Part shown: positions 21,336 through 64,000 of the stretch, piece after piece
Layout of the letters: each line of letters begins with the position of its first letter
Numbering within the stretch: the stretch's first letter is position 1
Source: Chrysomallon squamiferum
Taxonomy: Eukaryota; Animalia; Mollusca
DNA: 64,000 bases
Direction: 5' to 3'
Assembly: GCA_012295275.1 (NCBI GenBank)
Contig: CM022668.1
Span: 372,001-436,000 of the forward strand
Notes under the pieces: generated by a model
Database searches by the model: none
Seen by the model: only the letters and a program-made list of their open reading frames with translations
What the model was told of the DNA's origin: nothing
Translations under genes and position numbers: made by a program

Positions 21336-21374
<39 letters not shown>

Positions 21375-21680: not shown

Positions 21681-21780
21681 ATATGTTTTATGATTGTATA
21701 ATGTATTATCAAGTCATCTGAATATCATAATTAAATAATTAACATGAAATATAACTTGTGTTGTGTTTATTTCTCTAGTG

Positions 21781-22170
21781 CAGTGATTCTCAACCGCCGT
21801 GTCGCGAAACTTTGTGACGAACACCTGAAAAAACGGACAATGTGCATAAATCTCCGTTTCATGTTCTACTAATATGCCTTGGAGGAAGGAACTTCCTTTC
21901 TCCAGTGAATATGCACACATTCAAAGTCCACCAATCAGTGGCCGCCACCAACCTTTGCACCTTTCGCTCAAGGTCGATCAGTTGCCCATGAGACGTCAGT
22001 GTGATAGGTTGTGTGTGTGGTGTTGTTCCGCACTGGTCGTGTGTGCGCGTGCGTAATGCCGATTGCCGAATTAACGATCTCATCATATAATATTTAAAAT
22101 TATTACTGTGTCGCGACAGTTTCATGCGCTCGTAGGTATGTCGAGAGTAAAAAAAGGTTGAGAAACACTG
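21781..22170. mobile_element. Non-autonomous hAT (Charlie-like) MITE, 390 bp
   Basis: TIRs CAGTGATTCTCAACC / GGTTGAGAAACACTG. 8-bp TSD CTCTAGTG at 21773-21780 and 22171-22178. Confidence 0.92.
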
Positions 22171-22459
22171 CTCTAGTGGATAGACAGACTTATTGATTTA
22201 TATAGATTTAGCGTTAATATTCCTTGTTAGCTGGCCCTTAAAGCACCTTGTTACCCTAGGCTGAGCCTTAATAAAATATCTAAGATGTTTAATGGTGTGG
22301 GCCCCATGACAACAGCATATAGGGGTTTGGCATATCGGACACATTGGGAAGTGTATCATACACTGTATGTGCTAGGACAGTGATTTTGTGAGCGACATAT
22401 TTATAAATATAAATATAATATAATGAGTAACTAATGATAACTAATAATATAAATATTAC

Positions 22460-22560
22460 CTACAATTTCACATTATCCAGAATTCCTCCCGTTACAATAG
22501 TAACAAATAATAAACAATAAATAGCTATACAGAGAGAATTCGGGTTATTTCTGATATTTT
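22460..22560 (-). other. Putative non-coding first exon of copy A
   Basis: Donor TAG|GTAATA at 22460/22459. Block GAATTCGGGTTATTTCTGATATTTTC is shared with copy B at 43236. Confidence 0.45.
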
Positions 22561-22588
22561 CATATTCTATCTTCATGTTTACCCAGTT

Positions 22589-22599
22589 GGGGATTTCCC
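22589..22599. promoter_or_regulatory. NF-kB (kB) site GGGGATTTCCC upstream of copy A
   Basis: Matches GGGRNWYYCC. Positionally conserved in B and C. Confidence 0.65.
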
Positions 22600-25019: not shown

Positions 25020-27000
25020 AAGAGATTGAAGATGGCTAATAGTTTGAAGAATAGAAAGAAACTGCAAATAATCTTGATGGAAAATCTGGGTAATGTTCAT
25101 GGTATTTGTGGCTACCATGAAGTAGGAAGAAATAATTTTAGACATAATACTAAAGTAATAGGTAAGTATTTAAAATGTGCATGCACAATAGAAAATGTAA
25201 AGAATATTAAACCAATTTGTCCTTATGGTATGGTTGTAGAAAATCTTGGATGGCGGAATAATGAAAAAAAATAAAAAAACGTATGTGTTATATGGTTACA
25301 GAATAGATGAAATGTCAAGCAGTTTGTTTTAGCAGCATGTTTAAAGATAATAGATACATCAGATGTCAAAATGAAGGACAGAAGCAGTGAAGAACACCAT
25401 ATCTGCAAGAAGCCATGACATGTTACAAAGTGCAATGATTCAGTGTGAAGTGTTTACTTTGGTACCTTGTGTGTTGTTTGAATATTCAGTGCTTCTCTAA
25501 AGGAACAAGAGCTGAGGAGATCACTTCCATTTGTGGAAGAAATAAATGTGATAAAAAGATATATATAACATTAAAGGGAACTAATTTTTGTATAGTCCAT
25601 TTTAATGTATTAGATAAAATAATTGTTTGGCAGTTAAGTTATTCTCAGTTAAGGAAAATACTGTAAATAACAAATCAGTTTGAAGAGAAAAAATTATGAG
25701 GGAAATCCAGCTAAAAATGTATTTTATCAAGAAAAGGTTAATCATAGCACCTCACATAGTTTTTACATGATGATCATAAATGGAAAAATGGCAAGAAATA
25801 CTGTAGTAAAGAAAATGTTGAGCTCAATTATGATACAACACTGGGGATATTGATGAATTCACTAAAGTAGAAAATACAGAAAAAATTTGCTCGGTGAATA
25901 GTAATGTTGTAGAACAAGATAATGTTTATGGATAAAATCACTGATGAAATTATATCCACCCCATCTTAAGATAGGCTTATAGTAGGAGAATTGTTTGGGT
26001 GTTCTGTATCTGATAAGTACTTTACATATAAACTTCCAATGCAGATAACATTTGAATTGGAAGCTGGACAGTGGCAAAATTTACTTAAATTATGAAATGG
26101 CAGGCCATCTGAATATGTGAAAATCAAGCACTGTCAACAGTGTTAGATTGGATGAATCAATGGTTTTATCTTAGCAGCACTTTCACATAAAGCAAAAATC
26201 ATGAATCAGCAGTCTGTGTTTTCAAATGCCAAAAGAACTACTGTTCACATATATTTAGTCATTTAATGAATAAGTTGAAACAAAGTTGCCAGAAAAATGT
26301 AAGCAAAAAACCAGCTGCAGAATATTTCTTTATATGGTAAGTCTGATGATGAATAGTAATGATATGAAAGAAATAACAAAATTCCTACATAGACAGACTC
26401 TTTTTAAAACACTGGTTTCAGAAGAATATTCTGATTTTGATGAATGTAATTTTGAACAAGTAGACATGAAAATGTTGCAACCTGGTTTCTATACAGAAGA
26501 AGAATTTCTTAATTTAGCTGAAGACTCTCCTTTTTAGTAATTTTCTCAAGTTATCTTAGAAAATGTTATGAAAATTTACTTGTCATATAAATTTGAAGAA
26601 GTAGTTCTTAAATATTTAAAACAAATAAATAAATAAAATTAAAAAAATATTGCTCATTTGGTCATTATGGTCCAATATACCTTTGAGAAATATAACAGAC
26701 TGAAAAAACAGCATCAGAAATTCACAGTAATAAAAACTTTATTCACAAAGAGATGAAAACAACTAGCACAATTGAAAATAGATTTAGAATTCTAAAATAT
26801 ACTGGACTGCAAGGCAGAACCCAAACAGACTGGATGATTTTTCAGAAAACAATTGTTTCAGTACAAAAATTGGCAGCTGCAGTTTGTGTGAAAGAATAGT
26901 GAAAGAATATTTAAGGAAGATAAAGAAACCATATAGTAAAAAAATGAACATAACAACAGCAAAAGCTGTTTTAACTAGTAAGTGCATTCCTAAGTATCCA
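25020..27000 (+). mobile_element. Highly decayed coding-like relic, possibly Mutator/NOF-FB-like transposase
   Basis: Broken peptides LDESMVL-ILAAL and KTSCRIFLYMVSLMMNSNDMKEITKF are reminiscent of NOF-FB-like proteins. Many stops; family recognition is weak. Confidence 0.25.
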
Positions 27001-31500: not shown

Positions 31501-33510
31501 TATATAATAATTATCTCGGCACAACCCAGCTCAATGGTATAATTATATAATATCTATTACCTATTAAAATAATATATTTATACAAGATTATATTATATTT
31601 AATTATTTTTCATGATTATTAAATTCTTAGTTACAAGCAAATAAATAAGTTTCCTATACGATTTGTGTATGAGAAGGAACAAATAAATATATATGAAAAA
31701 CAAATTACTTCCACTGCAGTTTATTTAAAATTGGTTCTGCATAAGCTGTCATTGGTTCTGTGCCAGTTTCAGATAAATAAATCATTCATATTCAGAATTT
31801 ATAGATTCATGATTTAAAAACTCCAACTTCCATTCCCACTGTATCTTGTTACTGTCTTTCTGAGAACACATACAGCAAATTTGATAAAATAAACAAAAAA
31901 ATAAAACAATAATTAAAAAGATTTCATTTTAAAAGATTAATTTGTTCGTGCTTCCTTTCACTTTTCCAGACTTTTCTTTGATGTACAATATTAATTATGG
32001 ATATTTTAACTTCCTTAGAGATTAAATTTATTCTTAACACAATACTGTTTTAGTGTTTATTTGTGTTATTAGATTTTTTTTAAACTTTTATATACTGCAG
32101 TCTTTTTCACCCAGTCTAGATGAGTTCTATGAATACAAAACTGGAAATGTATTAATATTCACAGAAATTAGCAAAAACATAACACTGATATCGTGAGATT
32201 TCAAAATCCTTTCTGAATCCATGTGTCCTTTTTTCCTACACATGTTGTTGATATCTGTTATTTAAATTAGATGAACAGCTCATTACATATCATAAATATT
32301 TTTTCTTGTTTCAACTTCTGCCTACTAATTGTTCCTCTTCCTTTCCTTCTCTGCATCTTTAATTTGCAGTAAAAACAAAACAATTTTCCATTGCCTCAAT
32401 ATGACATAACAAAAAACCCACAATGTATATTTCTTTTTCCATAAAGCATGCATTTTTTTATATCAGTCATTTAAAGTTTTATCTGGGCTTAATGAATAGT
32501 AACAGTATGATAGGTGTGTCTAAATTCCAATTAATCATAAATGAAGTGATTATGTACTTCAGTACTTAAGGATTCTAATATAAAAATATGTTATTTCAGT
32601 TGAAAAAAGCATGGCCTTACAGAATTTTATAGTGGTAAGGCCTTTGTTACATATTTCCATTATTTACAAAAATTATAACAGTTCATATAAAATATGATAA
32701 ATTGTTATATCTAATTTAGAGTGCATTATAGACACATATAATGATATATTAATACTTTCTCATTTTAAACAAATCTTAATTATCTTTGTTTTTGAGTTGG
32801 TCCTTATGTCTGAAAGCCAGATCAACATTCAGTTAGCTATTTCTATTGATCAACATTATGAAAAGAATTCTCAATACTAAACTAATTTATATGAAAAAAA
32901 GAAAACTACCAAATAACTGGAAGATAACTGTTCTTTTATAATCAAATATAAACATATATCAACATATACAGAGTAAGTGAAACTGATATCTAATTACTTA
33001 GAGGATCTGGTGTTTTACTTCCCTCTTTCCTAATATATATATGTATATGTATGTCAAACTTCAGTACATTAAGATGGAAGGGGTCAGCACAAACAGCTTG
33101 AATTTTATGATTTGTACCCATAACGCAGAGGTCATGTTGAAATTAAAAATATCATCATTTTTCTCTTAACCTTTCAACAGATTAATTCCTTGCATAGATC
33201 AGAAGTTACGAAAAAATTAAAATTGCACAAGGACTTTGTAACAAAGTTTTATATTGATACACATTACTAGATTTGATAACAAATGTAACTGATGTTTACA
33301 CCTTACAGATTTATGTCCCCTTATGTCTGATGTGAAAATTATTTTCCCAAGTTTATCTGACACTTTAAAGTATTGTACAATTGCATGATACTGACAGTTT
33401 CATTCAGTTTATGAGTAATTTCAAATCATTTAATTGTCATTGATCTGAATGCTTTTATTGAGACGTGAACTAATAAGCAAAACCAAATACTTTGATGTGT
33501 GTGTGTGTGT

Positions 33511-33542
<32 letters not shown>

Positions 33543-34047
33543 TTGAGTGCATGTATGTTATAATCACACAAAATAATAAACAATTTGGATTTCAGATGCG
33601 GAAGTTAACTCAAGATCTAATCCACTGAACAGCCAACAACACATAAGAAAGAACAAATGACTTTGGTTGATGTTTTGTCAGATACTGAATGAGTGAAGGT
33701 ACAACTTCTCTTCAGACATTGATGACTTTCTATTCCACAAGGTCCACTCTAACAACATTCCATTTGATGACTTATCTTCAGACATTAATAATTTTCTGCT
33801 TGGTTTCTTTTCATCGGACCTTGACAATTTCCTTATCAAGTATATATATTTACAGTAAAGAATTTGTAAACAAAAAACACAATGAATCTGATGAGGAAAT
33901 TTATACGAGACAAATGTGTGTGACAACTTCCTGCTTTATCAGGAATTTTAAATGAGATAAATATATATAGTATATTTATATATTTACAGTAAATAATATA
34001 TATTTTTTTTATTTCACTGTAAAACATGTAATCCTGCAGTCAAAGAC

Positions 34048-42100
<8,053 letters not shown>

Positions 42101-43027
42101 GTATAGTTGTCACTTTTTACACAATCAGTTGTAACTTTTTACATGTACACTAATTTTAACATACAAAAACAGCTTGAATTTTATGATTTGTACCCATAAT
42201 GCAGTGGTCGTGTTGAAAATTAGAAAGCTCAGCATTTTTCTCTTATACTTTTAACAGATTAATTATATCATGCATAGATCAGAAGTTATGAAAAAATTAA
42301 AGTGGAGAAGGAATTTATAACAACTCTTTTTGTTAGTACTCATTACTGTTGTCACTTTTTACACGTACAGTTGTCACTTTTTACATGTACATTTTTAATC
42401 TGTACAAATATTATTTTGTACGTGTACAACTGTCATAGTTCAACCTGACTCCTGATTAACAGAACAAATTAAATCTTTCTGTTCTGTGTTGTCAGATGAC
42501 AGCTTTCTGGAAAAAGCGAACAAGAATACATTCTTCAGTCAGTTTTTTCTACAAGAAAATAACAATAAATATTATGTCATGATTAATTTTAAGAATCAAA
42601 TTTAATTATATTGGTATTTTAGCAATTATTTTTGACAGAAAGGATTATTTTGTAGAAATAGATATGTTGTCCTTCCAGTTCATCATGCAGAGACTTCTTT
42701 GTTAACTGCTGTACACACACACTCAATGTGATGGGAGAATGACCACTATAAAAACAGGAAGATTTTATAAAATAAGAAACAAAACTGCAATTTGGGTTGC
42801 AGATTTGGCTTAAATATATTTCATTAAAATGAGTAGACTATGACTACTACTACTACAACTACTGTTTAGTTACATATATATTAATAGTAAATAATAAACC
42901 TGTTTAAAATATGAATCTTGTCTGATTAGAAAAATATTTCAAAATGAAAATGAACCTGCATTAGTAAGCCAACGTTAAAACATATTAATAATAATATATA
43001 TATTTAAAAAAAAAAAAAAAAAAAAGG

Positions 43028-44527: not shown

Positions 44528-46218
44528 TGTGGATGTTTGTTCCAGTGCGGTTTTCCTGTGCAGGTTTACTGATGTCCAGATAACAGAGTGCTATAGCATC
44601 TGGTTCAACGTGGTGGGTGGGGGGGAAGCATTAACACATTAAGTTTATCTGTGCGCTGCAATTTTACCGCGCCGCTTCTTTTATTCCCTTTTGTGGTTCT
44701 CAGGTTTTTTTTCTCATGTTTTAGGACATCTCAACTTAGAGTCAACGTTAAAAGTAAAACTGCTGGTGTGATTAGCGATATACTATATAACATTCTGTCT
44801 AAAATAAGATATAGGGCACTTGAAGCAATATCACACACACGCGCGCGCGCGCGTACTACAGTATATATATGCATGCACAGACCCATACATACATACACAC
44901 ATACATTCGTTTTGGATTAACTTAGTACGTGGTGTAATGACAAGTTTGACTACAAAACGGAACAGTCTTATTAAGGTTTCTCAGTTTTGGCGGAAAGGCG
45001 TATGCAGCGTTTTAAAAATTCCTCTTGGGGAGAGAAATGCATTTTAAGCAGATCATCGCAGCATATTAACCACAGAAGAATGACATTCTAGTCACTTTGT
45101 TTATCCTGTCTATCATATTGGTAATTTTACTCAACCACATTTGCATGACAAACCAGCCTGCAGATTAAAAATCAATTTATTTACGACTCGATGGTATCGA
45201 ATATCAGCATATACCCAGTTAGATAGATTACCGTCGTCTAGCAAACTTGACAGCGCGTGCTCTTTATAAACATAATTTATGGTTCTGTCGTCTCTTCCCA
45301 AGGCATAAAATAGATTTAAGAAATTTTACAAAACGAGTTTTCAAAATCCAGGTACGTTCATGACATTCCATTTAACTTGATTCTTGTTAATTGTTAGAGA
45401 TTTACACTTATAGTATGGATGTATGTGTGTGTTTATATTTATGCATTTAGGAATAAATATCCTGTTGCCGTATGTACTGGAGATAGACAATATTCGGGAG
45501 AGCAAAGTCCAGTGACGACGAAACTCGAAGGCACGGAACCATTCGCTCGCATTGCAGATGCGGACGACAAAACCTCTTGGACAGAAACAACAATAAATTT
45601 AACTTCTTAGGTAAAAGCCGTCGTGAAGTATATCAAATGTGAACAAGATCATTCTCACTTAGCACTGTTTTAACTGTGTGACGCGTTTGTTGTACGTCAC
45701 TCACAAAATATTTCATTATTAATATTGTACTCATTACTGTGTTTATTCTTTACTGTTATTATTATTATGAGTTGAAGATTCCTTAACCGGAATTCCGAAA
45801 TCAGAAACTTTTCCGAGCACCTGAAATTATTTTAAACCAAACTTAATTATCTTTCTTTTTGTTTTTGAGTTGGTCCTTATGTCTGAAAAGCAGATCAACA
45901 GTCATTTAGCTATTTCTAAAGACCAACATTATGAAAAGACAATTCTCAGTACTAAATTGTAATTTATATCCGAACTCCCCCCAAAACAAGAAGAAGAAAA
46001 CAAAAACACACAAAAACATATATCAACATATACAAAATGAGTGAAACTGATAGGCAATTACCTAGACGATCTGGTGTTTTACTTACTTCTTTCCTAATGT
46101 GTGTGTGTATGTGTGTGTGTGTGTGTACGCGCGTTAAACTTCGATAATTTCAGATGGAAGGGGTCTGAAAAAGCAGCTTGAATTTCTTGATTTGTAGCCA
46201 TAATGCAGTAGTCATGTT

Positions 46219-46406
46219 TGTTATGTTTTAACATTAAAACATAAAGTTCATTTCAGTTTTCAGTTTTCAAACGTTTAAAAAATGGTTACGAACAAAAACT
46301 AACGCATGCTCCCGGTGACGTCATATAATATTATCTCCCTTATTCCGGTTCCCCTAAACATTGTAAACTGTAACAATGTTAACCATAGCACCATTTATAT
46401 ACAACA
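46219..46406. mobile_element. Solo LTR-like element, 188 bp
   Basis: ATGTT|TGTTAT...ACAACA|ATGTT: TG..CA termini and a 5-bp TSD. Empty site in copy B. Confidence 0.7.
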
Positions 46407-46711
46407 ATGTTGAAATTAAAAATCTCAATTTTTCTCTTATTCTTTTAACAAATTAATTCTAGCATACATAGATCACGAGTTATGAAAAAAATGAAAATTA
46501 CACAAGGACTTTATAAAAAATCTTTACATTAGTACACATTACTACATCTGATAACGAATGTAACTGATGTTTACACCTTACAGATTTATTTCCCCTTATG
46601 TCTGATGTGAAATTCATTTTCTCATTTAAAAAGAATTCTGGATGCTAGGAATCACCATCTCTCTTGATCATCAAGTAAGACATTGTAGGCCTACATGTAT
46701 GCATAAAGTTC

Positions 46712-46954
46712 ACATATAAAAGTTTCCTGGGTATAATATTTTTTGTTTAGCCATAATAGAGATTTAAAAAAATGCATACCTGCATGGATGATTGATACAA
46801 TGCATTACAATGTACATTTTTTCTGAATTGATCATTCAGGTTTTAGTTAATCAGATGTTAATGGCTGAAAAGGTGTTATTTTCATGTATGTGCATTTTTT
46901 AAATCTATATTGTGGCTAAACAAAAAATATTACACCCAGGAAACTTTTATATGT
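46712..46954. mobile_element. Foldback/MITE-like element (duplicate of 4266-4508)
   Basis: Same long inverted arms. Confidence 0.7.
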
Positions 46955-47587
46955 TTTAGCTAACATGTGGGAGATTAAATTTCAATAAAGGTCATCTGAA
47001 GATCACGTGGTCCACACGGTCAGTTTCAAGGTCATAGCAAAGGTCAAAAGGTCAAGGTACTCCAGTATTTTCCAAGCTAAACAAAAATGGCAGATTTGGT
47101 ATCCTTGTCATTTTGCCTTTCTAACAATACCAATTTTATGAAGATTGGCCCAGTAGTTCCTGAGATATGAGGGTTCTAAGGTTGGTGGTCACACCCATTT
47201 TTGGCAAAAATCTCAAAATTCGGTGGGCCGTATCTCCCACACCACTGGTCTGATTGAGCTAAAATTTCAGATTTGGTGCTGTGGGATCCCAGTCAACAAG
47301 TATACCATAAAAATCTGAGAAGGTCGGGTTTAAACCATTGGGTGATTTGACACGGAATAACCCTAAATCATTTGGATTTCATATGTGAAAGTTAATTTAA
47401 GATCCAATCCATTGAATAAGAAGAACACGACTTTGGTTGATGATGTTTTGTCAGATGCTGAATGAGACACTGATGACTTTCTGTTTCACAGTGTTTCATC
47501 TAACAAGTTCTCTTGAGACATTTATTTAACTTCTCATTTGGTGAGGAAATATAGTATAATAGAATAACTAATCCTATACTCAAAGCC

Positions 47588-47784
47588 TCAAGTAATAAAT
47601 GCATTTTCTCCAAATGTAGGAACCTGAAATAATATTATTAAGTTCATGTGTCAGACACTAAACAAAATTTAAAAATCTAATTAACTGACATGTATGAATG
47701 TATGTATATTTAATCATTGTGTGTGTTTGTGTGTCCATATTACATATAAACTGAATTAATTTTTATTTATAATAATGCTATATT

Positions 47785-47817
<33 letters not shown>

Positions 47818-48268
47818 ATATTACATATAAACTGAATTAATTTTTATTTACAATAATGCTATATTGGTGTGTGTGTTTAGAAAAAATATTTATCAATTTG
47901 TAAACTGCTAAGTATCAGTGAAAATAAAATATAAATTAATATACCTTTAATGATGTTTGCTCCTTTATGTCACCATCACAAGTCTGAAGTTTGAAACAGT
48001 TATAAAGTTAGTAAATATATCAATAAACATGTAGTGAGTTATAGTATCTGTAGTATCTGTGTGTTTTTATGTGTGAAAACCTGGTCAATTTATTTGTGTA
48101 TCTATGACACCTGTGTTTTTAGAAACGTTTTGTATGTGTATGTGTGTATGTATACTGGTAATAGGTGGAAAAAATGGGTAACTAGTTCTAAAATTAATTT
48201 TACAAATAAGAACAAATATTTCTTGACTGTGTTAATTGTTTATGTTTCTTTGCCAGTGTTTGCATGTA

Positions 48269-48322
<54 letters not shown>

Positions 48323-51300
48323 TTTACTAAAAATTATTTAATAATTTGTAAACTGGAAAGTATCAGTGACAATAAAATATAAATAAAAATACCTTTAATA
48401 ATGTTTGCTCATTAGTGTCACCATCACAAGTCTGAAGTTTAAAACAGTTATAAAGTTAGTAAATATATCAGTAAACATGTAGTGAGTTATAGTATCTGTG
48501 TGTTTTCAATGTGTGATAACCTGGTCAATTTATATTTGTATCTATGGCACCTGTGTTTCTAGAAATGTTAGGCATGTATATGTGTGTATGTATACCAGTA
48601 ATCGATGGAAAACATGGATAAATAGTTCTAAAATTAACTTTACAAATCAGAACATATATTTCTAGGCTGTGTTGTTTATGCCTCTTTGTTGTTGTCTGCA
48701 GTCAAAATGAAACAATTGCTGTCATACCACAAAATTAATGCGATGAGTTTATTGTTACTTTGTGATCCTCAAAGTGCAGTATTTTGCTGGATATTGCTAG
48801 TAATCATCCCTGTAATTTGACTTCACTCAGACTGCCCATGTTTTGGAAGTCATAGGCAATGTTAACAACTGAGTTACATACAACTCTAACACCTGAGTCA
48901 CATACAACTCTAACACCTGAGTCACATACAACTCTAACACCTGAGTCACATACAACTCTAACACCTGAGTCACATACAACTCTAACACCTGAGTCACATA
49001 CAACTCTAACACCTGAGTCACATACAATTCTAACACCTGAGTCACATACAACTCTAACACCTGAGTCACATACAACTCTAACACCTGAGTTACATACAAC
49101 TCTAACACCTGAGTCACATACAACTCTAACACCTGAGTTACATACAACTCTAACACCTGAGTCACATACAACTCTAACACCTGAGTCACATACAACTCTA
49201 ACACCTGAGTCACATACAACTCTAACACCTGAGTCACATACAACTCTAACACCTGAGTCACATACAACTCTAACAACTGAGTCACATACAACTCTAACAC
49301 CTGAGTCACATACAACTCTAACAACTGAGTCACATACAACTCTAACACCTGAGTAACATACAACTCTAACACCTGAGTAACATACAACTCTAACACCTAT
49401 GTAACATACAACTCTAACACCTGTGTAACATACAACTCTAACAACTGAGTAACATACAACTCTAACACCTGAGTAACATACAACTCTAACACCTGAGTAA
49501 CATACAACTCTAACACCTGAGTAACATACAACTCTAACACCTGAGTTACATACAACTCTAACAACTGAGTAACATACAACTCTAACAACTGAGTAACATA
49601 CAACTCTAACACCTGAGTAACATACAACTCTAACACCTGAGTAACATACAACTCTAACAACTGAGTTACATACAACTCTAATAACTGAGTAACATACAAC
49701 TCTAATAACTGAGTAACATACAACTCTAACAACTGAGTAACATACAATCTAACACCTGAGTAACATACAACTCTAACAACTGAGTAACATACAACTCTAA
49801 CAACTGAGTAACATACAATCTAACACCTGAGTAACATACAACTCTAACAACTGAGTCACATGCAACTCCACCAGCTGAGTTACATACAACTCTAACACCT
49901 GAGTTACATACAACTCTAACAACTGAGTAACATACAACTCTAACAACTGAGTAACATACAACTCTAACACCTGAGTAACATACAACTCTAACAACTGAGT
50001 TACATACAACTCTAACACCTGAGTTACATACAACTCTAACAACTGAGTAACATACAACTCTAACAACTGAGTAACATACAACTCTAACACCTGAGTAACA
50101 TACAACTCTAACACCTGAGTAACATACAACTCTAACACCTGAGTTACATACAACTCTAACAACTGAGTTACATACAACTCTAATAACTGAGTAACATACA
50201 ACTCTAACACCTGAGTAACACACAACTCACACAACTATAACAACTGAGTAACACACAACTCTAACAACTGAGTAACATACAACTCTAACACCTGAGTAAC
50301 ACACAACTCACACAACTATAACAACTGAGTAACACACAACTCTAACAACTGAGTAACATACAACTCACACAACTCTAACAACTGAGTCACACACAACTCA
50401 CACAACTCTAACAACTGAGTAACATACAACTCTAACAAGTGAGTAACACACAACTCACACAACTCTAACAACTGAGTCACACACAACTCTAACAAGTGAG
50501 TAACACACAACTCACACAACTATAACAACTGAGTAACATACGTCAGTAACTCTCGAACTGTGATGGATGTAAGATGAAACTGATTTTGAGCAAACGGTGA
50601 TGTCTGTTCTGAGTGAACTCATAACATGGTATTTTGAGTAATAGATCAGAAACTATTTCAGTGCTCATTAATATGAAATATTATTTTTACAATCAGTAAT
50701 AAGCACATGAAAAATATATCGAATAGCAGTACATTAAAAAAATAGTATTCAGAGCAATATTTCATGTAATAGATAAAGTACTATTTTTATTAACTCAGTA
50801 ATTTACTATTAAATAATATTCTGAGTAATGACTAAATTTTGGTTTCAGTAATGATAAACAGCATTTAGAACATCTGATAAAAAAATAATTACTTGAATAA
50901 CTGATAACAAGTATTTTGATTATCTAACAAATAGTATTTTGACTAATTAATAAACAGTATATTGATTACCTGATAGTATCTGTTTTGAGTAACTGACAGT
51001 GCTATTTCAGTGATTAATTAATAACATTTTGAGTAAGTGATAAACAGTATTTAATGTAACTCATAAACAATATTCTGAGTATCTGGTAACACTATTTTGA
51101 GTTTTCTTACTTGAAAACTTACTGTGCTTGTCTGTTTATCATGATCAACACACAGCAAAGGCTGAAAAATAAATTAAAGTGATTTAAGTAAATAAAAATA
51201 TAAGCCTGCATGTATAAACTGAATTTATTTTTAACTATGATAATGATATATAGGTGTCTCTCTGTGTGTATGTATGGGTATGTAAATGTTTATTTACCAA

Positions 51301-51517
51301 CAAATTATTTAACAATTTGTAAACTGGAAAGTATCAGTAACAGTAAAATATGAATTAAAATACCTCAGATAATGTTTGCTCCTTAGTGTCACCATCACAA
51401 GTCTGAAGTTTGAAACAGTTATAAAATTAGTAAATATATCAGTAAATGTGTAGGCAATGAAAAAAGTGAGTTGTAGTATCTGTAGTATCTGTGTTTTTAT
51501 GTATAAATAGTTTACAT

Positions 51518-51564
<47 letters not shown>

Positions 51565-54500
51565 CACTGATAATTATCTGTACAATTGTCATTATCATTA
51601 TTTTTATCATAATAATCAACATTAAATAAGTTATTATCGCTAAACTATCCAAAGCAAACTTAAAAAAGACAACTAAAAAGAAAAAGAAAAGAAGAACAAA
51701 GAAACAAATTCCTCTGATACCGTAATTCTAATTTGTGAGTAGTTTCCTAACTGAACACACTGTGTTCCGCTACTGTTCACTATGTTGATCACTGTCTCTT
51801 GATCTGAATATCAAAATTACAACAACTGTTAATTATATTTTCCTCTTAAATAAGAAAAAAGAAAAATAACATCCACATTTTTTCAATATCCTAGAAATGT
51901 TTCGTTACAAATTAACAATACTTTACAATCTTTTTAATAGAGAATTTTTATGGCAACACTATATTTTAAGATATTTATACTAAAATACATTTTTGGTGTC
52001 AAACACTGACTTACACTCAGAGACACACCAGTTCATATATATAAATGTATAATATGGTAATATCAATATATACATAAATACAGCATCTTTAGTTTCCACT
52101 TATTTCCTTACCATTATCCTTCTTACCTTTTCTAGAATCAGATGCTTTGTCTGTCTTGAAACCTCCTGAAATTTGAAACATAAATATTTTAACATTATGC
52201 ATATTCTGATATTTAAAAAAACATGCTGACGGAAGCCATTAAACTGGAAGTACACTATTTATATAAATTCAAAATGGCTGCCAGCAAGTCCTGTAGAGAC
52301 CATTATCTCTTAAACAGCCTGCTCTAGACCCCATAAATGTATTACTGGCAGATAGGACAGTGTCATTAAAGAACAAAAATGTTCCTTCAAAATTTTTGTG
52401 TGGCATCGCAGACAGCAGATAAGATGCAGGTGACATGAAACACACAATTTATGGTGACAAATGATCCGAGATTTTATTTTTGGGTGCCAGAGATCAAAAT
52501 ATCAGTATACCAGCTGGATATGTTATAATATCTGAATTTTTACTTATTTCCTTACCTTTATCCTTCTTATCTTTTTTAGCACAAAATGTTTTAATCCTCT
52601 TGAAACCTCCTGAAATTTAAAAAGTAAATATTTTTACATTATATCTACTCTGATATTTTAAAAATGTGTTGATGGAAGTGTTTCAACTGCAAGTACAAAA
52701 TTTGTATAAATTCAAAATGGCTGCCACCAAGTCCTGCAGAGGCCATAAATGAATTACTGGCAGATAGGAAAGTGAAATTAAAGAACCAAAATATGCTTTC
52801 CAAATTTTTGTGTGGCACTGCTGACAGCAGTAATTGACATGAATGACACAATTTATCTGGACAAATGATCACCACTGTAATGTATGAACTTAGGTCAACT
52901 TTCTTTCCTGCCTCTGTTCAGATCATCTCTTATCTCAGTGCTGTTATTCAATCATTTACATGTTAGAACACAAGCAGTTTCATTCACTTTTACATATACA
53001 ATGCTGACCCATCATTAGAGGCACAGAGGGGGATGGCATAAATGCTTATATTTTCAAGGACCTCTTGTTACACTTATTCCGAATCTTCATGTTCAGCATC
53101 AACAGTAACACAAGCAGTATTACTCCATAATGAACCAGTTGTGTAGAGTATCACAGTCTTCAATTTTATTCATGAGATACTTTCGTATCCATATTTGTCA
53201 GACACAGACATGTATTCAGTATTTATTTCTGAACCCATTCAAACCTGGTTTGAAAAGAAAACCTTTGTAAGTGATGTTTCTCTGAATCTAAACAAACTTC
53301 ACACAGGTGGCCATTTTTTCTTAAACCTTCTGAAAAAACAACTTTGAGATCTGAGAAAAGGTACCAAAGGGATTCAGGCAGAAACCTTAAATTAAATTCA
53401 AGTGATCTTAACTGAAATGAGAGTGTTGAGTATTCAATTTGTGCAGTAATTTTAATCATCCTTTGCTTTTTAGCATGCTCATTGTCTCTCTGGAACATCA
53501 TAATTATGTCATTCTGAAGGCACATTTTTGTTCACCAATAATACATTTTATGCACTTTTTTTTACCCAAAATCATCAGAACTTTATGTAGATATTCAGAT
53601 TGCCCTGCTCTCAAGTCTAACCAGAAGCAGCCATTTTGTTACAGGATATGCCATTTTTGGCATACATCTAATGGACTAGTTACAAAATAAATGTTTAATT
53701 AAGAAGTTAGATATTCTTACCTTTTTTATAACATATTACTCCAAAAGTGATAAATGCAACAACAATAACAGTGATGATACCAGCAATCAGACCAACAGTA
53801 TTAGTTCTTTCTTCTGTTTCTAAATAAAATTGAAGAAGTATTTAAATATTAATTGAAAAATGTTTTCAACATAAATAATAAATAATTAAAAAAGGTAATT
53901 ATCAAATTCCTGTTAAAAAATGAACTGAAAAGAACTGAATGTTTTTTGCATAAAACCAGAACATGAATAAAGTGATTTGTCTATTTCTAATAAATATTAC
54001 AAACTATTAAAAAATATATATATTTTATAATATCAGTGCTGGGAAAATGTTCTCTTTTTACCAGTCTTGACCAATTTGTGATCATTGGGCTGATGTTATT
54101 TTTGAAAAACATTGTTTACTGGTAATATTTTAAAAATATTTTTGATCAAAAGCATGCCATCATTTCTGTAATTAAAATAATTTTATTTCTAAACAGTCAC
54201 AACAAATTAAACACTTTGAACAACTCCCACATTTACTGCATACATCTGTCAGTAGTGTTTTCTTTGTTAACATGAAATGAACATTGTATTAACGGAGTTA
54301 ACATTTTGAATTAAGACTGACTCTGATGTATTCAAGTCAACACTCTCAGGTATTTCCTACAATGGTGATTACAAGCTGTGTGGAAAAAAAATAAAATAAA
54401 ATAAAAAGAATTCACTAAGATAGGCACCAGTTTATCTGCTTTATATTTCTTTTTGGAGCAGGAATTAGCCTAAACCTTGATTTCTTAAAACATGTAGATG

Positions 54501-55933
54501 ATACTGCTGCTCACAGTCATTAAGGGTTTGAGATAAGATATTTAATAACACTAAAAATTAATGTCATATATTTAAGTAAGAATTTATCATCATCCAGTCA
54601 TTGTTCATGTTATTAGTAGTTGTGCCATCAGTTTCTGTCAAATCCACTTAACCATTCAACCAACAAAACATTTGACATTTATTAACATTCAACATGATGT
54701 CTCTTTACATGCACACAAATAGATATATAGACAGACAAACAGAGATCAATAGACAGACTGACAGACAGATAAAAAATAAAAAAGAGAGATAACAAAAGGT
54801 AAAGAAGTTTGATATTACCAGATACTGATGGCTTTCTGGTTGTCCTGAAGAAGAAAAAGAAAAAAAAAATGTCAGTCAACAAATTCTAAAATATTTACTA
54901 TGAAAATGGTATTTTTCAGTATCTTAATCACATGTCTGTATGTAAATTAACTATCTTAACAGACATTACATACATAAACTATGTACAAACCTATACCTAC
55001 AGAAACAATGTTCACATTAATTCTATCACTTCATCTACAACAAAATATGTACATATTCATGCATGCATAAACACACACATACAAAAAACAACAACAAACC
55101 CTTCAGTCTCTGCTGTTGATTTTTCAGCTGTTTTTTCAGTTGTTGTAGTATCAAGAACACAGTGAAAACCTTTAAATAAACAAAAACCAAATTCAAAAAC
55201 CAGTACATGTTAAAATTGGTTTTATTTTATTTATTTATTTTTGTACAACTAATGTCAAACTATAAACATTTTCAAGTTGATAACAGAAATTAATAAAACA
55301 GTAATGTATACATATAAATATGTTTTTAATTAAAGTTAATAACACCACAATAATACAACAAGCCAGTCATTTGAACAAAAATGTATTTAGACTACTTATT
55401 ACATTACATTTATGTGTCACACATTATTATTTTATTTCAGTAAAGGTTAATAATATCAGTGTAAATCTTTTTCCAGTACAGAACTTTGTCTTCAACATGG
55501 AGTTTGCCTATTTTTAATAATCAGGTTTTACAAGATAAAACTCACTTGAATTGAGTTTCCCTTCACAATTACTTTTTAAGCACTGGCATGGTTCATTGAA
55601 GGTAAAACAGTGACAGTTTTCTGGTGATGGGGCATACTGTTGTTGATAGTCACAGCTACACTTTGTGTCCTCTATAGGTGTACCCTCCTTACACATCTTT
55701 TTGCCATTCGTTTCACATGTCCTGTGTCGGTGGCTGCACACAGGAAAGATAAACGAGTATGATGCTCTCCCCACTGGCTGATAGGACCCGGCAGGACACA
55801 ATTCACACTTAATAGCCTCATCTGGATAGAGTCTAGCATACGATCCTGAAAATAAAATAGTAAAAACATATTTTAAATACATGTTTATGTGCATGTGCAT
55901 ATGTATGTATGTCTGTATGTGTGTGTATGTATG

Positions 55934-55967
<34 letters not shown>

Positions 55968-56306
55968 TGTGTGTATGTATGTATGTATAGACAGATTGAC
56001 AGACAGGCAGACACAAAAAGAAGTAGATATACACTACTAACCTGGAGCACACTCTCGTGGCTGGTGACAAAATGAAATAACGCTGGAATCACCAGACTCC
56101 TGACAATGCAGTCTGTCAGTCTTCTGACAAAATTTCCACTCCAGACTCTTGTACTGTTGTGTTCCTACAGCTGGGCAGTAGTCTAAACCTAACACATTAA
56201 CACAATCCAAGTTCTCAACACACAAAACTACTACAAGAAACAATACACAGACTATTTCACCTGAACAACTCTTCCATTTTGTCTGGACAAACATCACTGA
56301 TTGCAT
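47588..56306 (-). CDS. TNF receptor superfamily-like protein, copy C (~318-336 aa), RHIM-like tail
   Basis: Exons 56306-56042, 55845-55546, 55169-55100, 54844-54819, 53819-53721, 52609-52556 and/or 52165-52127, 51803-51721, 51161-51123, 47623-47588. All GT-AG and in frame. Confidence 0.85.
48863..50541. repeat. Intronic 24-bp minisatellite, ~1.7 kb
   Basis: Same unit as 6394-11790, but more regular. Confidence 0.97.
51721..51803 (-). other. RHIM-like motif exon of copy C
   Basis: Encodes DQETVINIVNSSGTQCVQLGNYSQIRIT, with VQLG at 51756-51745. Confidence 0.78.
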
Positions 56307-57269
56307 GTATAGTTGTCACTTTTTACACAATCAATTGTAACTTTTTACATGTGCATATACAAATTAAATATTTTTGTTTTTTCTTTTTGTTCTGTGTGTT
56401 GTCAGATGACAGTATTCTGGAAACACAAGAATATATTCTTCAGTCAGTTATTCCTACAAGAAAATAATAATAAATATTATGTTATGATTAATATTAAGAA
56501 TCAAATTTAATTATATTGGTATTTTAGAAATTATTTTTGACAGAAAGGATTATTTTGTTAAAATAGATATGTTGTCCTTCCAGTTCATCATGCAGAGACT
56601 TCTTTGTTAACTGCTGTACACACACACTCAATGTGATGGGAGAATGATCACTATAAAAACAGGAAGATAATATACAATAAGAAACAAAACTGCAATTTGG
56701 GTTGCAGATTTGGCTTAAATATATTTCATTAAAATGAGTAGACTATGACTACTACTACTACAACTACTGTTTAGTTACATATATATTAACAGTAAATTAC
56801 AAACCTGTTCAAAATATAAGTCGTCTGATTAGAAGTTAAGGAAATATTTCAAAATGACTAGTAACTTCCATTACTAAGCCAAAGTAATTACCAGGAAATA
56901 TATTTAAAAATAAACATGATTACTACATTGGGTCATTGTCAGGAACACAGACAATATTATTTCTGTTCAGATGGTGACACTGATTGTGTGGGGTGTTACT
57001 GACATCACTACTTACAACATTGTACATTTTTTATATTTATGTGTATTTGTTAATTTACATGTGTTGGTATTTGTATCTTCATAATAACATTAATTTTCTT
57101 CTTTAGAAATTAGTGTCTCAGTGATGATATGTCTTTAATATAACCAAAATAATAATAATAATTACAGGAAGTTCATGTGTATATGTAATGAAAAGGCTTA
57201 TGGTTCAATTATTATTAATGTGTTATGTATATATAAAGGATTTTAACAGAGACTTTAATACCAGGTAAT

Positions 57270-58160
57270 TAGTTGAAAAAGTATTTAAATATTAATTAAA
57301 AATGTTTTCAAATTTACCAGCAACATAAATAATAATTAAAAAATGTAATACCAAATTCATGTAAATCATGAACTGAAAAAGAACTGAATGTGAATTTTCA
57401 CTCTAAAAGAAGAACACGAGGAAACTGATTTGTTTATTTCTAATAAGCATTAGAAACTATTAAAAAAATATATATATTTTATAATATCAGTGCTGGGAAA
57501 ATGTATTTTTTTTTACCGATCTTGACCCTTTTGTGATCTTTGGGGCTAAGGTTATTTTTAAAAAACATTGTTTACTTGTCATATTACTGGAGAGAGAGAG
57601 AGAGAGAGAGAGAGATCAAAAAAAAAAAAAAAAGAGATATAACAAAAGTTACAGAAGTTTTGTGTTACCAGATATGAATGGCTTTCTGGTTGTCTTGAAA
57701 AATAATATTAAGAAAAACATAATTGTCAGTCAACACATTTTAGAATATTTTCAGCATCTTAATTATATCTCTGTATGTAAATTAACTATCTTACACACAC
57801 ATTACATATACAAACACATACACATACTATGTACAAAGCTATACATACACAATATACACATTAATGCTATCACTTTATCTATAATAAAATAGATACATGT
57901 TCATGCATGCATACAAACATAAGTAGTCTCTGTTGTTGATTTTTCAGTTGTTGGTTTGTCAGTGGTTGTAGTATCAAGAACACAGTGAAAGCCTTGAAAT
58001 AAACAAAAACTAAATTTAAAAACCAGTACATGTTAAAATTAGTGTTATTTTATTTATTTACTTTTTAACAACTAACATCAAACTATAAACATTTTTAGTT
58101 GATAACTGAAATGAATAAAGCAGTAATATATACATATAAAAATGTTTTTAATTTATGTTT
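57270..58160 (-). pseudogene. Orphan stalk-exon duplicate in intron 1 of copy C
   Basis: Duplicate of 19540-20427. Confidence 0.7.
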
Positions 58161-59067
58161 TATACCATGTAATTAGTTCTTGTTAACACAATCAGTAGAA
58201 ATGATAACGGGCAGATATATTAGTATTAGTATGCAAGGTGTCCAAGTGCCTGAAATAAACATGAGATCACATCCATTAATCTGTTGTCAACTAGGTGTTT
58301 ATGTGTTCAAAGACAACAGAACCCCTGCTATTTAATAAACAATGAACTTAAAATTCCAAAATGAAGTTAATTACATTTGTTAATGATTACTTTTAACACA
58401 TGGGTTTGGGTGAAACTGATATCAATTAAAACTGAATGAACTGCAAGATGTTCTTAAGTGATTTAATAATCACCTATTTTATATTGATAGACTATTTCAT
58501 TAGTATCAAACTGAGTAGAACTATATTAATGGCATTACCAGTTTCATATTATGTTACTTCTACTTGAACATATGATAACAGTATGGATAGAGAATGATAT
58601 CATGTATAATAATATGGATAGGAGTTTTACTTATGGATAACTCCTCAAAGAGGACATGACTAATGAACTTTGGCTGTTGATATAAATATTTAAATGAATG
58701 TAATAGACGGGTTCCAAGTGATGTCACAAAAAGGAAGTTGGCTATCTTTGGCACAATGAAAGTGTTTGTTACTTATCAATCACAGTGAGGCATGGCATAC
58801 AAGAGAAGTTGTACAATGCCAAAGAAAAAATAATGTTATTGTAACGTTGAGGAGGTTACAACAGATCAGTGTGATGTAGAAAAAATCCACTATTATGTCA
58901 TTCCAGCTATAAAAAAACATCAAGGTGAAAAAATTGAGGAACTGAGCAGTGATTATGGCTACAAAGTTGAATTAAAACATAGTTTACAAAAATCTAGCAA
59001 ATGTTCAAATTTGTTCAGAACATTTTATAAACAGCATATATTTTTCAGCAGTAGTAGCATCATTACA

Positions 59068-59101
<34 letters not shown>

Positions 59102-59269
59102 ATACATACATACTTTTTTGCATGTTTAAACAATTGTTTTCCATGATAAGCAATAATTAAAGTCTTGTGTGTGTGTATATAAACAAAAAGATATTTCACA
59201 TTTACAGTTTGAGGATACTTTTCAGAAGTAATTTATGTCATGATTATGAATATGAAGACTTTGAACAAT

Positions 59270-59545
59270 TGAGAAAAACAATGCCAATGCAGTTTTGCAA
59301 AAGTAGCCATAATTATACACTATTTTGAGATTTTCATTAAAAGACCCTCAAACATACTGACAAGGGCACAAAGTTGATCGAGTGAGAAACACCACAACAC
59401 AGCTAAATATCTGACTGGCATTATCCCTCAAGCATCTATTGCTTTCACATCTCTAGGGTGGGTAGGGCATGTTAGTGACAAATATATTACTGAGCATTGT
59501 TCCTTTCTATCAGACATCATACCTGGTGATATTATTTCGGCTGTC
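59270..59545 (+). mobile_element. ISL2EU/PIF-Harbinger-type (DDE_Tnp_4) transposase pseudogene fragment
   Basis: [68 protein letters not shown] matches the family pattern KHHNT.K.LIG..P.G.I.F.S.GWGG..SDK.IT..CGFL..L.PGD. Confidence 0.8.
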
Positions 59546-60648
59546 ACTGAATTCAAATTGCCTAACAAATTGTTACTACAATCACATCCACGCTTTTTAT
59601 TTTTATGCCATGGAATTGAAATTGCATAACTAATTGTAACTAGAATGGAATGGAATGGAAAAAAATTAACGTGCTAATCAGAGCTAGCTGTTGTGAAGCA
59701 TGTCTGCGACGGGCACGCTTTCTGACAGGTCAGCGGGCGTGTCCGTCGCTTAACTAGAATCACATCCACGGTCTTTTATTGTAGCTGCCAATTTTTTCTA
59801 ACTCCATGGTGTTGTTATAAAAAGGGCTGGCGTTTGGCAATTAAGCAGCGAAGGAAAAGGGCAACACATTTTTTTGTTTTGTTTTTTGACACAAAAACAA
59901 ACAACAATTCTATGAATTTATTGACTTACAGATTGATCGGTTGAACAGCCGGTGGATCTACGGATGGAATGGCTGATTGACGGATCAATTTGAGTGGCCA
60001 ATTAAATTAATAATTAAAAACAAAACTATACGTGCTGTACTTTCAGACCATACTAACTCGTATTTTTTTTTTTTTAATTCTTCTCTTGTACATAATAAAT
60101 ATAAATAAGTTCATGTTCTTATTCCTAGCTGCAAATATTTATAACATCTTTTAAATTAAAACAGAAAAATAAAATAAAATAAAATAAAATGTAAATAAGT
60201 TAACTATACTCTTGTTATTCTTTTTAGTTACAGGTGTTCACAGCATCCTTTTAATCAATAAAAAGACCATTGGCAACAAAAAAAAAAGAGAAAAAAAGTT
60301 GGAATTGTTGGACCAGAAGAAGGCAGCCAAAAAGAACAAAGAAATATCAGCACCAGCCGACAAGAGGACAAACAAACAGGACACAACCAACACAGACCCG
60401 GTGATGACTAGGAGAGCTTCAACGAGCCAGACAAGTACTTGAAACAAGGAGCGGATAACGTGTACGAAACCTCGGAACCAGTTCATTACGATCCGATATG
60501 CTGGACACTCCCTTGTGTCCTGCAATCGTAACGAGAACCCACTCAAACATATGTTTTATGATTGTATAATGTATTATCAAGTCATCTGAATATCATAATT
60601 AAATAATTAACATGAAATATAACTTGTGTTGTGTTTATTTCTCTAGTG

Positions 60649-61038
60649 CAGTGATTCTCAACCGCCGTGTCGCGAAACTTTGTGACGAACACCTGAAAAC
60701 ACGGACAATGTGCACAAATCTCCGTTTCATGTTCTACTAATATGCCTTGGAGGAAGGAACTTCCTTTCTCCAGTGAATATGCACACATTCAAAGTGCACC
60801 AATCAGTGGCGGCCACCAACCTTTGCACCTTTCGCTCAAGGTCGATCAGTTGCCCATGAGACGTCAGTGTGATAGGTTGTGTGTGTGGTGTTGTTCCGCA
60901 CTGGTCGTGTGTGAGCGTGCGTAATGCCGATTGCCGAATTAACGATCTCATCATATAATATTTAAAATTATTACTGTGTCGCGACAGTTTCATGCGTTCG
61001 TAGGTATGTCGAGAGTAAAAAAAGGTTGAGAAACACTG
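60649..61038. mobile_element. Non-autonomous hAT (Charlie-like) MITE, 390 bp
   Basis: Same TIRs as 21781-22170. TSD CTCTAGTG at 60641-60648 and 61039-61046. Confidence 0.92.
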
Positions 61039-61448
61039 CTCTAGTGGATAGACAGACTTATTGATTTATATAGATTTAGCGTTAATATTCCTTGTTAGCT
61101 GGCCCTTAAAGCACCTTGTTACCCTAGGCTGAGCCTTAATAAAATATCTAAGATGTTTAATGGTGTGGGCCCCATGACAACAGCATATAGGGGTTTGGCA
61201 TATCGGACACATTGGGAAGTGTATCATACACTGTATGTGCTAGGACAGTGATTTTGTGAGCGACATATTTATAAATATAAATATAATATAATGAGTAACT
61301 AATGATAACTAATAATATAAATATTACCTACAATTTCACATTATCCAGATTTCCTCCCGTTACAATAGTAACAAATAATAAACAATAAATAGCTATACAG
61401 AGAGAATTCGGGTTATTTCTGATATTTTCATATTCTGTCTTCCCAGTT

Positions 61449-61459
61449 GGGGATTACCC
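61449..61459. promoter_or_regulatory. Variant kB-like site GGGGATTACCC upstream of copy C
   Basis: One substitution relative to the copy A site, at the equivalent position. Confidence 0.45.
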
Positions 61460-64000
61460 TTATCTTATATTCGTTTATCGCACGTCAGTCCTTTCAAATA
61501 AATAGTTTCCGGTCTCAGTAAAACTGTTATTATAAAATAAAACATGTGTTTCAGAACTGTAGCAGAAATAAAATTTCGGTTATATAATTGAATTTATTTA
61601 AGAAAAATAATATTTGTTATATATAATATTATAACACATCGGACATGTTTGTTCGCTAGCTCAGCAGATGCATGAAAATCAAATTTTTGATATCTGTTTA
61701 TTCCGTTGTAGTCATCTCAAATTTGATATTTTATAATTAATCTCAATTTTAGAATTTGTTTTCTTGTTAATAGTAAATTTTGAAATATTAGGCCTAATCA
61801 CTATTTAAAAAAAAAAAAAAAAAAAATCACATCCGCAGTATCGGATGTATTTACTTCTGTCATGACGAGCAAATTTGTGTTATTTTCAGATTCGAGTCGT
61901 TCATGTTTGAGACCGGTTATTGGCAGCACAAATCTGTTAACAATTAAAATCTAGATAAAAAATCAAACCCTTTCATGTAAGTTTAAAGTTATTCCTGTTT
62001 GAAATAGTATATCATAATCTTATGCTTGGCTATTGAAAATCAAAATATTAATGCCACATACTTCCCTAGTACAGAGTAGAATTTGCAGGCACAGGCTTTA
62101 TTATTATAAAAATATATTTAAGAACACGGGTTCTTAACTGTTAGGGTACTAAAAATGGACTATATAAACCACTTATGTCTGACCTATAGACAACTAAATG
62201 CTGTGACATAAATAACATTGGCAACATTAACCTTATTCTTTCAGAGAGAACAAAATGCTGTGACATCAATCACTATGTTTGGTCTAAACTGTTGGTTTTC
62301 AAACCTTTTTATATTTTTACATGTGTCAGTAATTCAATTACACTTTGTGTGTATATTTCTCACTAATTGTTATATTAAAACTGCCAGAAACTATTATTTC
62401 TACTATGGGTTAGTTGTTTTCAACAGCAGACAACAATAAGCATTCTTAATTTCACTTTTGCTTTTCAGGTTTCATAATTTTACAAGTTCTCATATTTCTT
62501 CACTTTATTTTTGCAGTGTATTAAAAGTGGAAAATGTCTATCATTTCTTGAAATGCCGTATCCAGCGTTGAATTGTGGTGTGACCTTTGTATGGGATGAC
62601 ACAATTAAGGTATTTGTATTTAACATTTTATTTTTTATTTTTTTATAAGATCAGTGTATATATATTTTGTTGTGATTTGAGATATTTTTTGTCATATCCT
62701 GCGTTTTTTTAACAGTACTAACAAAACATTTCAGATTGATATGTCACAAGAGGATCGGATTTGTGAGGAGGAGTAAGCATATGAGGGCAATGTTTGTGAT
62801 GTAGGTACACCACAAGATGATAGCTCTTATGATTACAGTAATAATTTCTCATTATGAGAAAAAAAATGAAGACAAAATCTCAAGTAAGATGTATTTGTGC
62901 TACTTTGGTGTGTGATCTACGCTCTTATTTTAATTATTATCTTGTTTATTCTTGGTTTTTTATTATTATTTTTCATGTCATAAATGAAACAAATTTTCCT
63001 TTTATTATATATTTATAATTTAACGAAATAAGGGATTAAAAAGTATACAAATTTGAATAATATCATCGATAAATTAGGCAAACATCTGCTAGAAACTAAA
63101 AAAAAAAGATCTTCAGAATTCTTCCTGATCTGTAACCAACAGAAATAATCAAGGTGTGATTGGAAGGTTCAGTCCTCTCATCTTTTTCAAAATACAAATT
63201 TTCTAATCCAAGAAGGTTCTTTCAGTTGCTTGAGTGTTGGCTTCAGTGTTTGGATCATCATAATTTCTGATCCAAGCTATGTCGAATGTGTTGTATTACT
63301 TTACCTGCCTGCTACACATGGTCTTATCTTACAGAAATTTCCAAGATGTTTAGCTGCTGTGGATTGCCCTTTATGTTATAGACCCCACACACAAGTTGTT
63401 TCATCATGTGTAGATCACAAGCCGAAGTAGCACCAATGTATTCATGTTTTTTTCCCACTCACACATACATATACGTAATTACATTCAGTTAAAAACTACT
63501 TCAAACTCGTTATTACATCTATAAGTCATATATAATTTGAAAGGTATAATGTTTGACACACATTTCTGCTTTCAGTTCTTTTGAGATAAACATTTGTCTA
63601 TCAAAAGAAACCAGTAATAAAAGATGTAATGCTTCAAAAGGGGTAATAAAATAATTAAGCCACAGAGTCATGCAAAATGATGTAGTTACAAAACACAACT
63701 GAAGTGTCCTTTGGTGATATGAACACAATTTTCATATATATATCTTACATTCTTACAAACGATATTTTATTTTTAATTCATTTGTTTCTTAATTATTTTT
63801 ATTATTATTATTATTATTATTTTTTTTTTTGCCAGCAAGTCAAAGTTAATAATAAAGTTTAACAAAGAGATTGAAGATGGCTAATAGTTTGAAGAATAGA
63901 AAGAAACTGCAAATAATCTTGATGGAAAATCTAGGTAATGTTCATGGTATTTGTGGCTACCGTGAAGTAGGAAGAAATAATTTTAGACATAACTATAAAG

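Follow-up and report, generated by a model that had tools for sequence, protein, structure and literature searches.

A putatively RHIM-like tail exon diverges sharply between tandem copies of a TNF-receptor-like gene in Chrysomallon squamiferum, probably under selection

Why should two tandem gene copies with nearly identical introns differ at many sites of one short coding segment, and is the motif within it a RHIM? We analysed a 64-kb stretch of eukaryotic DNA (the window) from Chrysomallon squamiferum. The comparisons below indicate a real difference, on which selection has probably acted, around a motif that is putative as a RHIM.

Self-comparison of the window identified one minus-strand gene in three copies, A, B and C, which follow each other without gaps and share a unit boundary at 32762/45829. 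Copies A and C diverged by about 1% in their aligned parts, with large indels in addition. Copy B was about 97% identical to C in exons 1 and 2 and at 50760-51359, and far more diverged elsewhere. A 169-bp satellite (about 19 copies, window positions 1-3203) adjoins the assembly gap (3204-3403) at which copy A begins. An intronic minisatellite with a 24-bp unit occupies about 5.6 kb in A (6394-12039) and 1.7 kb in C (48863-50541), and a related one with a 44-bp unit lies in B (34441-35441). Relics of stalk exons 3 and 4 were found upstream of exon 1 (C, 57668-57993; A, 19935-20261; the exon 4 relic has AA as acceptor) and are likely remnants of another gene copy.

Comparison of the copies and of splice sites gave copy C an open frame from a putative ATG at 56294 to a stop in 47588-47623 (Table 1). 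Two Cys-rich exons are followed by a Thr-rich stalk, a transmembrane exon and a tail of 84-121 residues built from short exons. RNA contigs contained the joints 55167>55544, 54845>55143, 51404>51752 and 51161>51364, plus a link to the last exon. The start codon and signal peptide of exon 1 were assigned by eye; direct inspection of the N-terminal hydrophobic stretch and of the single transmembrane-length helix, which is followed by basic residues, indicated a type-I topology. The cytoplasmic tail, which ends at the stop in the RNA-joined last exon, contained no death domain; it is polar and of low complexity, and no other domain was seen in it. The last exon, in which TFG precedes EN and apolar residues, bears a loose resemblance to the latter half of the RHIM-like exon. 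In C, an extra 370-bp duplication (52098-52870) bears two juxtamembrane exon versions, 6a and 6b, of which A retains only 6b intact. The A counterpart of exon 47945-47983 (5466-5513) has a 1-nt deletion and an in-frame stop, so A would need to skip that exon.

Table 1. Coordinates of the gene copies and exons in the window (copy C unless stated)
Feature	Positions	Strand	Remarks
Copy A region	3404..25155		About 99% identity to C across aligned parts
Copy B region	32762..42975		Mosaic
Copy C region	45841..64000		Extends to window end
Exon 1	56042..56294	-	Putative start, signal-like hydrophobic stretch, first Cys-rich part; covered by RNA contigs
Exon 2, TNFR-like Cys-rich domain	55546..55845	-	RNA joint to exon 3
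Exon 3, Thr-rich stalk	55100..55169	-	RNA joint 55167>55544
Exon 4, stalk	54819..54844	-	RNA joint 54845>55143, from B-type transcript
Exon 5, transmembrane helix	53721..53819	-	Hydrophobic stretch directly visible; 0 A/C differences
Exon 6a, basic juxtamembrane, candidate for C transcripts	52556..52609	-	Truncated in A
Exon 6b, juxtamembrane	52127..52165	-	Putative donor choice; in-frame alternative donor possible 15 nt further
RHIM-like hypervariable exon, copy C	51721..51803	-	27 codons; core VQLG; AG/GT limits and open frame
RHIM-like exon, copy A	13285..13394	-	36 codons; core VQLG; 27-nt in-frame insertion
Same exon, copy B	36629..36711	-	Core VQTE (Gly lost)
39-nt exon directly after RHIM-like exon	51364..51402	-	Identical in A, B and C; RNA joints
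39-nt exon, HDN/CVD site	51123..51161	-	4 non-synonymous A/C substitutions; B has HVN; RNA joint
Candidate duplicate of 51364 exon	48393..48431	-	Exon of such type follows version D in X9 RNA
Candidate second duplicate of 51364 exon	47945..47983	-	Counterpart in A frameshifted
Last coding exon with stop	47588..47623	-	X9 RNA loose end joins preceding exon type

The segment 51721-51803, which the sequence-only reading had singled out, is exactly one minus-strand exon. Exact alignment gave 10 A/C substitutions in its 83 nt, all in codons that change. Seven follow VQLG, as had been counted (51722-51744; 6 of the last 8 codons changed), and three lie upstream (51769, 51771, 51786); TQCVQLG is indeed identical between A and C. 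The description of these changes as only non-synonymous holds codon by codon, but pathway counting gives 9.5 non-synonymous to 0.5 synonymous. A 27-nt in-frame insertion in A, derived from a 12-nt tandem repeat, had been missed, and two 3-nt indels that compensate each other are an alternative reading of three of the exon substitutions. The four further substitutions reported for the next exon (HDN against CVD) exist, but in the second exon downstream; the true next exon, placed by the 51161>51364 joint, carries none.

The by-eye estimate of about one intron difference in 400 bp was too low: we measured 5/1416 locally (1/283) and 1/107 over the whole duplication, with no A/C differences in the upstream intron 51804-52126. 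Non-coding A/C divergence amounted to 126 substitutions in 13,536 aligned sites (0.9%). At a rate of 1.0%, 10 or more substitutions in 83 nt would be expected with P ~1e-8; random placement reached 10 in 0 of 5000 trials, and the densest 83-nt non-coding window, of all those scanned, held 6. The RHIM-like exon is about tenfold more divergent than nearby DNA and also denser in changes than exons 1 and 2 (12/553, Fisher P 1.5e-4), where 6 of 7 substitutions in exon 1 and all 5 in exon 2 are non-synonymous. Transversions make up 8 of the 10 exon changes versus 54 of the 126 non-coding ones (P 0.04).

Among the public runs listed, 9 of 11 contained the stretch (one organism, three studies; 2 of the 9 are RNA). 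Comparisons with them rest on contigs, not raw reads; contigs drop variants, and contig depth gives no copy number. The A/C differences survived in these contigs, the A exon being unchanged in run X1 (13267-13407) and the C exon in run X2 (51570-52053), and X8 RNA had the letters of C at two sites of the exon. The A type was not seen in X9 RNA, the only RNA compared with A, nor A or C in X5, in contigs that drop variants.

At least four versions of the exon were found: A, B, C and D. Version D occurs in X5 DNA, and five of its changes recur in spliced X9 RNA from a different study. Between A and D, 8 of the 83 exon sites differ (7 non-synonymous) but no more than 1 of 104 in the intron (Fisher P 0.011), and 6 of the 8 changes fall at sites outside the A/C set. 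D reads RQYVQIG; three of its changes lie within TQCVQLG, one of them replacing L by I in the tetrad. The core, which had been called invariant, is so in the A/C pair, but not in B (VQTE) or D (VQIG). Even in A/C the spared stretch does not stand out (P 0.04 over the 21 nt of TQCVQLG, 0.19 over the tetrad and 0.23 allowing for gap placement), a gap of at least 24 nt among 10 random sites arising 23% of the time. A possible fifth version is represented by a single 101-nt contig in X3, where the core seems to be missing from the loose end. By run, A and C-like versions were found in X1, C in X2, D in X5 and the fifth in X3, with B-type in all four. X9 RNA splices the exon at the limits seen in C for versions B and D, and joins the B-type letters to the next exon.

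A HMMER search of a protein library with exon 2 returned 14 proteins at E<=0.001; two of them, P0001 and P0004, owed their match to repeats and were not taken into the alignment. The other named relatives are all molluscan (Haliotis XP_046377158, XP_071101112 and XP_067686942; Babylonia, Littorina, Ostrea, Potamilus). They are uncharacterised type-I membrane proteins with the same ectodomain Cys pattern and 24-39% identity to exon 2. A model of the abalone relative P0019, from an alignment that includes exon 2, had ectodomain pLDDT mostly >90. Its best Foldseek match was DcR3 (E 1.2e-4, with a low TM-score, TMq 0.23), and among the matches listed all were TNFR superfamily or viral TNFR proteins. 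For exon 2 itself, the best Atlas matches were TNFR_c6 at 0.85-0.86, a lead only. At E<=10, neither exon 1 nor exon 2 matched any Pfam family, TNFR_c6 included; exon 2 had no match in a PDB sequence search, and a word-indexed protein search found nothing among 8 candidates. From the fold of the abalone relative, we infer that the receptor has a TNF-receptor-like fold. With the TNFR superfamily members that lack a death domain (DcR3, OX40, HVEM, CD40), it would share a signal-like N-terminus, an elongated Cys-rich ectodomain, a stalk, a single transmembrane helix and a short tail; unlike them, it has a RHIM-like segment in the tail and an exon 2 that matches neither Pfam TNFR_c6 nor PDB sequences. 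The known members of this group use TRAF-binding motifs.

The RHIM core tetrad is described as (V/I)-Q-(V/I/L/C)-G (extract of PMC9444067). VQLG (A, C) and VQIG (D) fit this consensus and VQTE (B) does not; the strict tetrad arises in about 1% of shuffled tails. In RHIMs, the core is followed by a conserved Asn, a variable residue and an apolar residue (extract of PMC4262963). Such an Asn-x-apolar element after the Gly was absent in A, C and D. The conserved Asn belongs at Gly+3, where A, C and D all have Ser; all three also have Ile at Gly+5. The proposed RHIM identity drew its support from the tetrad; the profile searches were blank. Pfam, whose searched library presumably includes the RHIM model, gave no match for 3/3 exon peptides at E<=10, nor for 14/14 and 4/4 relatives, and PDB sequences gave none for the exon peptide; the exon queries were short, and these searches had no positive control. 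The Atlas search with the exon and a profile-profile comparison of the exon with abalone proteins, likewise without positive controls, found nothing.

The tails of three abalone relatives contain a beta-arch-like VI(L/V)G, preceded by apolar-x-apolar and, like the motif in this gene, followed by an apolar residue at Gly+5, but they are not alignable with the tail of this gene. This shared pattern was drawn up post hoc; copy A fails it, and the 3 of 6 relative tails that match are all abalone and non-independent. When the abalone tail motif served as query, the hits (2 of 3 candidates) were the query itself and one close relative, also from abalone. The cRHIM core, VxxG with Gly at position 4 (extract of PMC10268257), is present in A, C, D and the three abalone relatives; a loose core of this kind arises in 16-27% of shuffled tails, so the match is weak. 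On balance, the sequence evidence tips modestly towards a RHIM-type function of the VQLG segment.

The proposal of diversifying selection was supported by the gene-wide substitution counts and by the exon-confined differences between A and D, but not by the counts in the exon alone. Across the 1023 coding nt that align, the A/C substitutions number 25.5 non-synonymous to 1.5 synonymous (P 0.002-0.04, depending on mutation model and rounding); exons 6a and 47945-47983, having no intact counterpart in A, are left out of this count. Outside the RHIM-like exon, 1 of 17 substitutions was synonymous (P 0.03-0.08). The excess within the exon was not significant, either for A/C (9.5:0.5, P 0.05-0.32) or for A, C and D together (about 16 variable sites, 1-2 of them synonymous, P 0.05-0.28).

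Gene conversion is evidently active in the cluster, because B and C differ by 2-4% at 50760-51359 and by 14-25% at 51560-51859. The local A/C introns are also more alike than the wider background (P 0.005). In the exon, A/C pS was 0.03 versus a pN of 0.16, and pS for B was 0.34-0.37; the low A/C value appears unlike that of an old neutral tract such as B. A neutral tract would be expected to bring synonymous changes and to spill over into the introns, and neither was seen in two comparisons. Selection, with conversion sharpening the divergence peak, is likely and is favoured over a neutral tract. A divergence peak under gene conversion has been described (extract of PMC3924837), where exon 5 of the red/green opsins is likewise a diverged exon amid near-identical introns in tandem copies. 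Unlike opsin exon 5, the exon studied here combines low synonymous divergence with several segregating versions, which suggests recent diversification rather than an old protected difference. Two donor routes were also considered for the A/C exon changes. Copy B was rejected as donor of the C changes, since at those codons it either agrees with A or shows a third state. Because every copy has the same next exon, the idea of a cDNA-mediated tract is unlikely to tell much.

The exon might still owe its state to mutation and conversion without special selection: short tracts, copied in from diverged paralogs that have gone unseen or from old alleles, would create the differences together with slippage indels, and homogenised introns would exaggerate the contrast. 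We consider this unlikely. The B/C mosaic, the unusually similar local introns, the 27-nt slippage insertion, the substitutions readable as indels and the non-significant exon counts are what it would lead one to expect, but it sits poorly with the failure of B as donor, the scarcity of synonymous changes, the arrest of differences at the exon limits in two comparisons, the transversion bias and the gene-wide non-synonymous excess. Alternatively, selection could be real and the motif not a RHIM, VQLG having arisen by chance in a rapidly evolving segment to which another adaptor docks. The rarity of the strict tetrad in shuffled tails, the conservative L to I change in D, which stays within the consensus, and the similar motif in abalone tails make this reading rather improbable, even though the negative profile tests, the missing Asn-x-apolar element, the loss of the core in the expressed version B and the amino-acid excess outside the exon agree with it.

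A different question is what A and C represent. The assembly may have set two alleles of a single locus side by side, or the copies may vary in number; the case would then be one of balanced allelic polymorphism and not of paralog divergence. We regard this as plausible, if somewhat doubtful; it alters the label, not the signal. It agrees with the roughly 1% divergence with large indels, with the start of A at an assembly gap and with the different versions in different runs, all four of which have B-type; contig depths also look lower for A, C and D than for B, a weak hint given that contig depth is no measure of copy number. The gap-free order of A, B and C with a common unit boundary speaks against it, and the run-by-run versions and depths that favour it come from contigs. 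Sequencing or assembly error, by contrast, is extremely improbable. Nothing points to it beyond the nearby gap and low-complexity flanks, and because A is exact in X1, which may be the source sample, and C is exact in X2, from another study, assembly error is excluded.

Selection on a RHIM-type motif would fit the following mechanism. A ligand would cluster the receptors; together with an adaptor that bears a RHIM, for example a RIPK1-like protein of molluscs, the tail motif might then nucleate an assembly of beta-sheet (amyloid) type, with NF-kB signalling or cell death as the outcome. RHIM-bearing RIPK1-like proteins are described from the zebra mussel (extract of PMC12119088). Changes in the flanks and core would tune partner or strength, and flanking residues are known to shape RHIM fibril structure and activity (extract of PMC9444067). 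RIPK3 tetrads with a polar third residue failed in NF-kB activation (extract of PMC12119088), so B, with VQTE, would likely be a weak or non-signalling version. Selection, whether exerted by a microbial antagonist or through partner specificity, would favour different versions and conversion would keep introns and neighbouring exons alike, which together would produce a narrow divergence peak. That the exon is the most variable tail part of a spliced, death-domain-less TNFR-like receptor, with VQLG a likely RHIM-type motif diversified by selection, is a proposition that we hold to be evenly balanced. A bolder form seems rather unlikely to us: molluscan TNFR-fold receptors would signal directly through their own tail RHIM, and the exon would be a multi-allelic specificity switch (VQLG, VQIG, VQTE, core-less) under diversifying selection, individuals differing in amyloid partners or in resistance to microbial RHIM antagonists. 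Escape from an antagonist, as first suggested, found no support: the antagonists cited have mammalian proteins as their targets, and this gene has molluscan relatives. A literature search for RHIMs in molluscan herpesviruses gave none among the matches listed (10 of 107).

In mammalian RIPK3, positive selection is clustered around the conserved RHIM tetrad (extract of PMC12119088). Fast-changing residues around V/I-Q-x-G are common to both cases, and natural tetrad variants tune activity in RIPK3. However, RIPK3 is a cytosolic kinase compared across species, whereas the present case concerns variation in the tail of a membrane receptor within a single species, with some versions in which the tetrad, conserved in RIPK3, is changed or lost. 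Membrane receptors with cRHIMs in their tails are known in insects and shrimp (extracts of PMC4262963 and PMC10268257; review PMC13506858). Drosophila PGRP-LC (PMC4262963) and shrimp SRB2 (PMC10268257) would resemble the receptor described here in having a RHIM-like motif in the cytoplasmic part and in signalling without a folded intracellular domain. Their ectodomains are of PGRP or scavenger type, not of TNFR fold, their motifs have been tested whereas the present one is putative, and these extracts report no hypervariability, unlike the case here. Literature searches gave no TNFR-fold receptor with its own RHIM-like tail among the matches listed, and the extract of PMC11463336 makes no mention of RHIM; the figure of lancelet RHIM architectures in PMC4262963 may show such a receptor.

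If the reading of a TNFR-fold receptor with its own RHIM is true, such a receptor would take a shortcut comparable to that of insect PGRP-LC, and a function could be assigned to a molluscan receptor family that has no name yet. In mammals, TNFR1 reaches RHIM signalling indirectly, via its death domain and RIPK1. The within-species variation of the motif would provide a natural allelic series for the influence of flanking residues on the choice of RHIM partners. Should the motif be something other than a RHIM, the locus would be an ordinary fast-evolving immune-type receptor cluster of an invertebrate.

Variation was also observed beyond the RHIM-like exon. The transmembrane exon of B (40264-40362) is strongly diverged from that of A and C, though exons 1 and 2 are nearly identical. 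Paired activating and inhibitory receptors have a shared ectodomain joined to different transmembrane regions and tails, and B may, as in such pairs, present the same ectodomain on a different transmembrane region and tail. Exon 2 showed at least five further differences in X9 RNA (55675, 55747, 55752, 55755, 55780), indicating that the ectodomain is polymorphic too.
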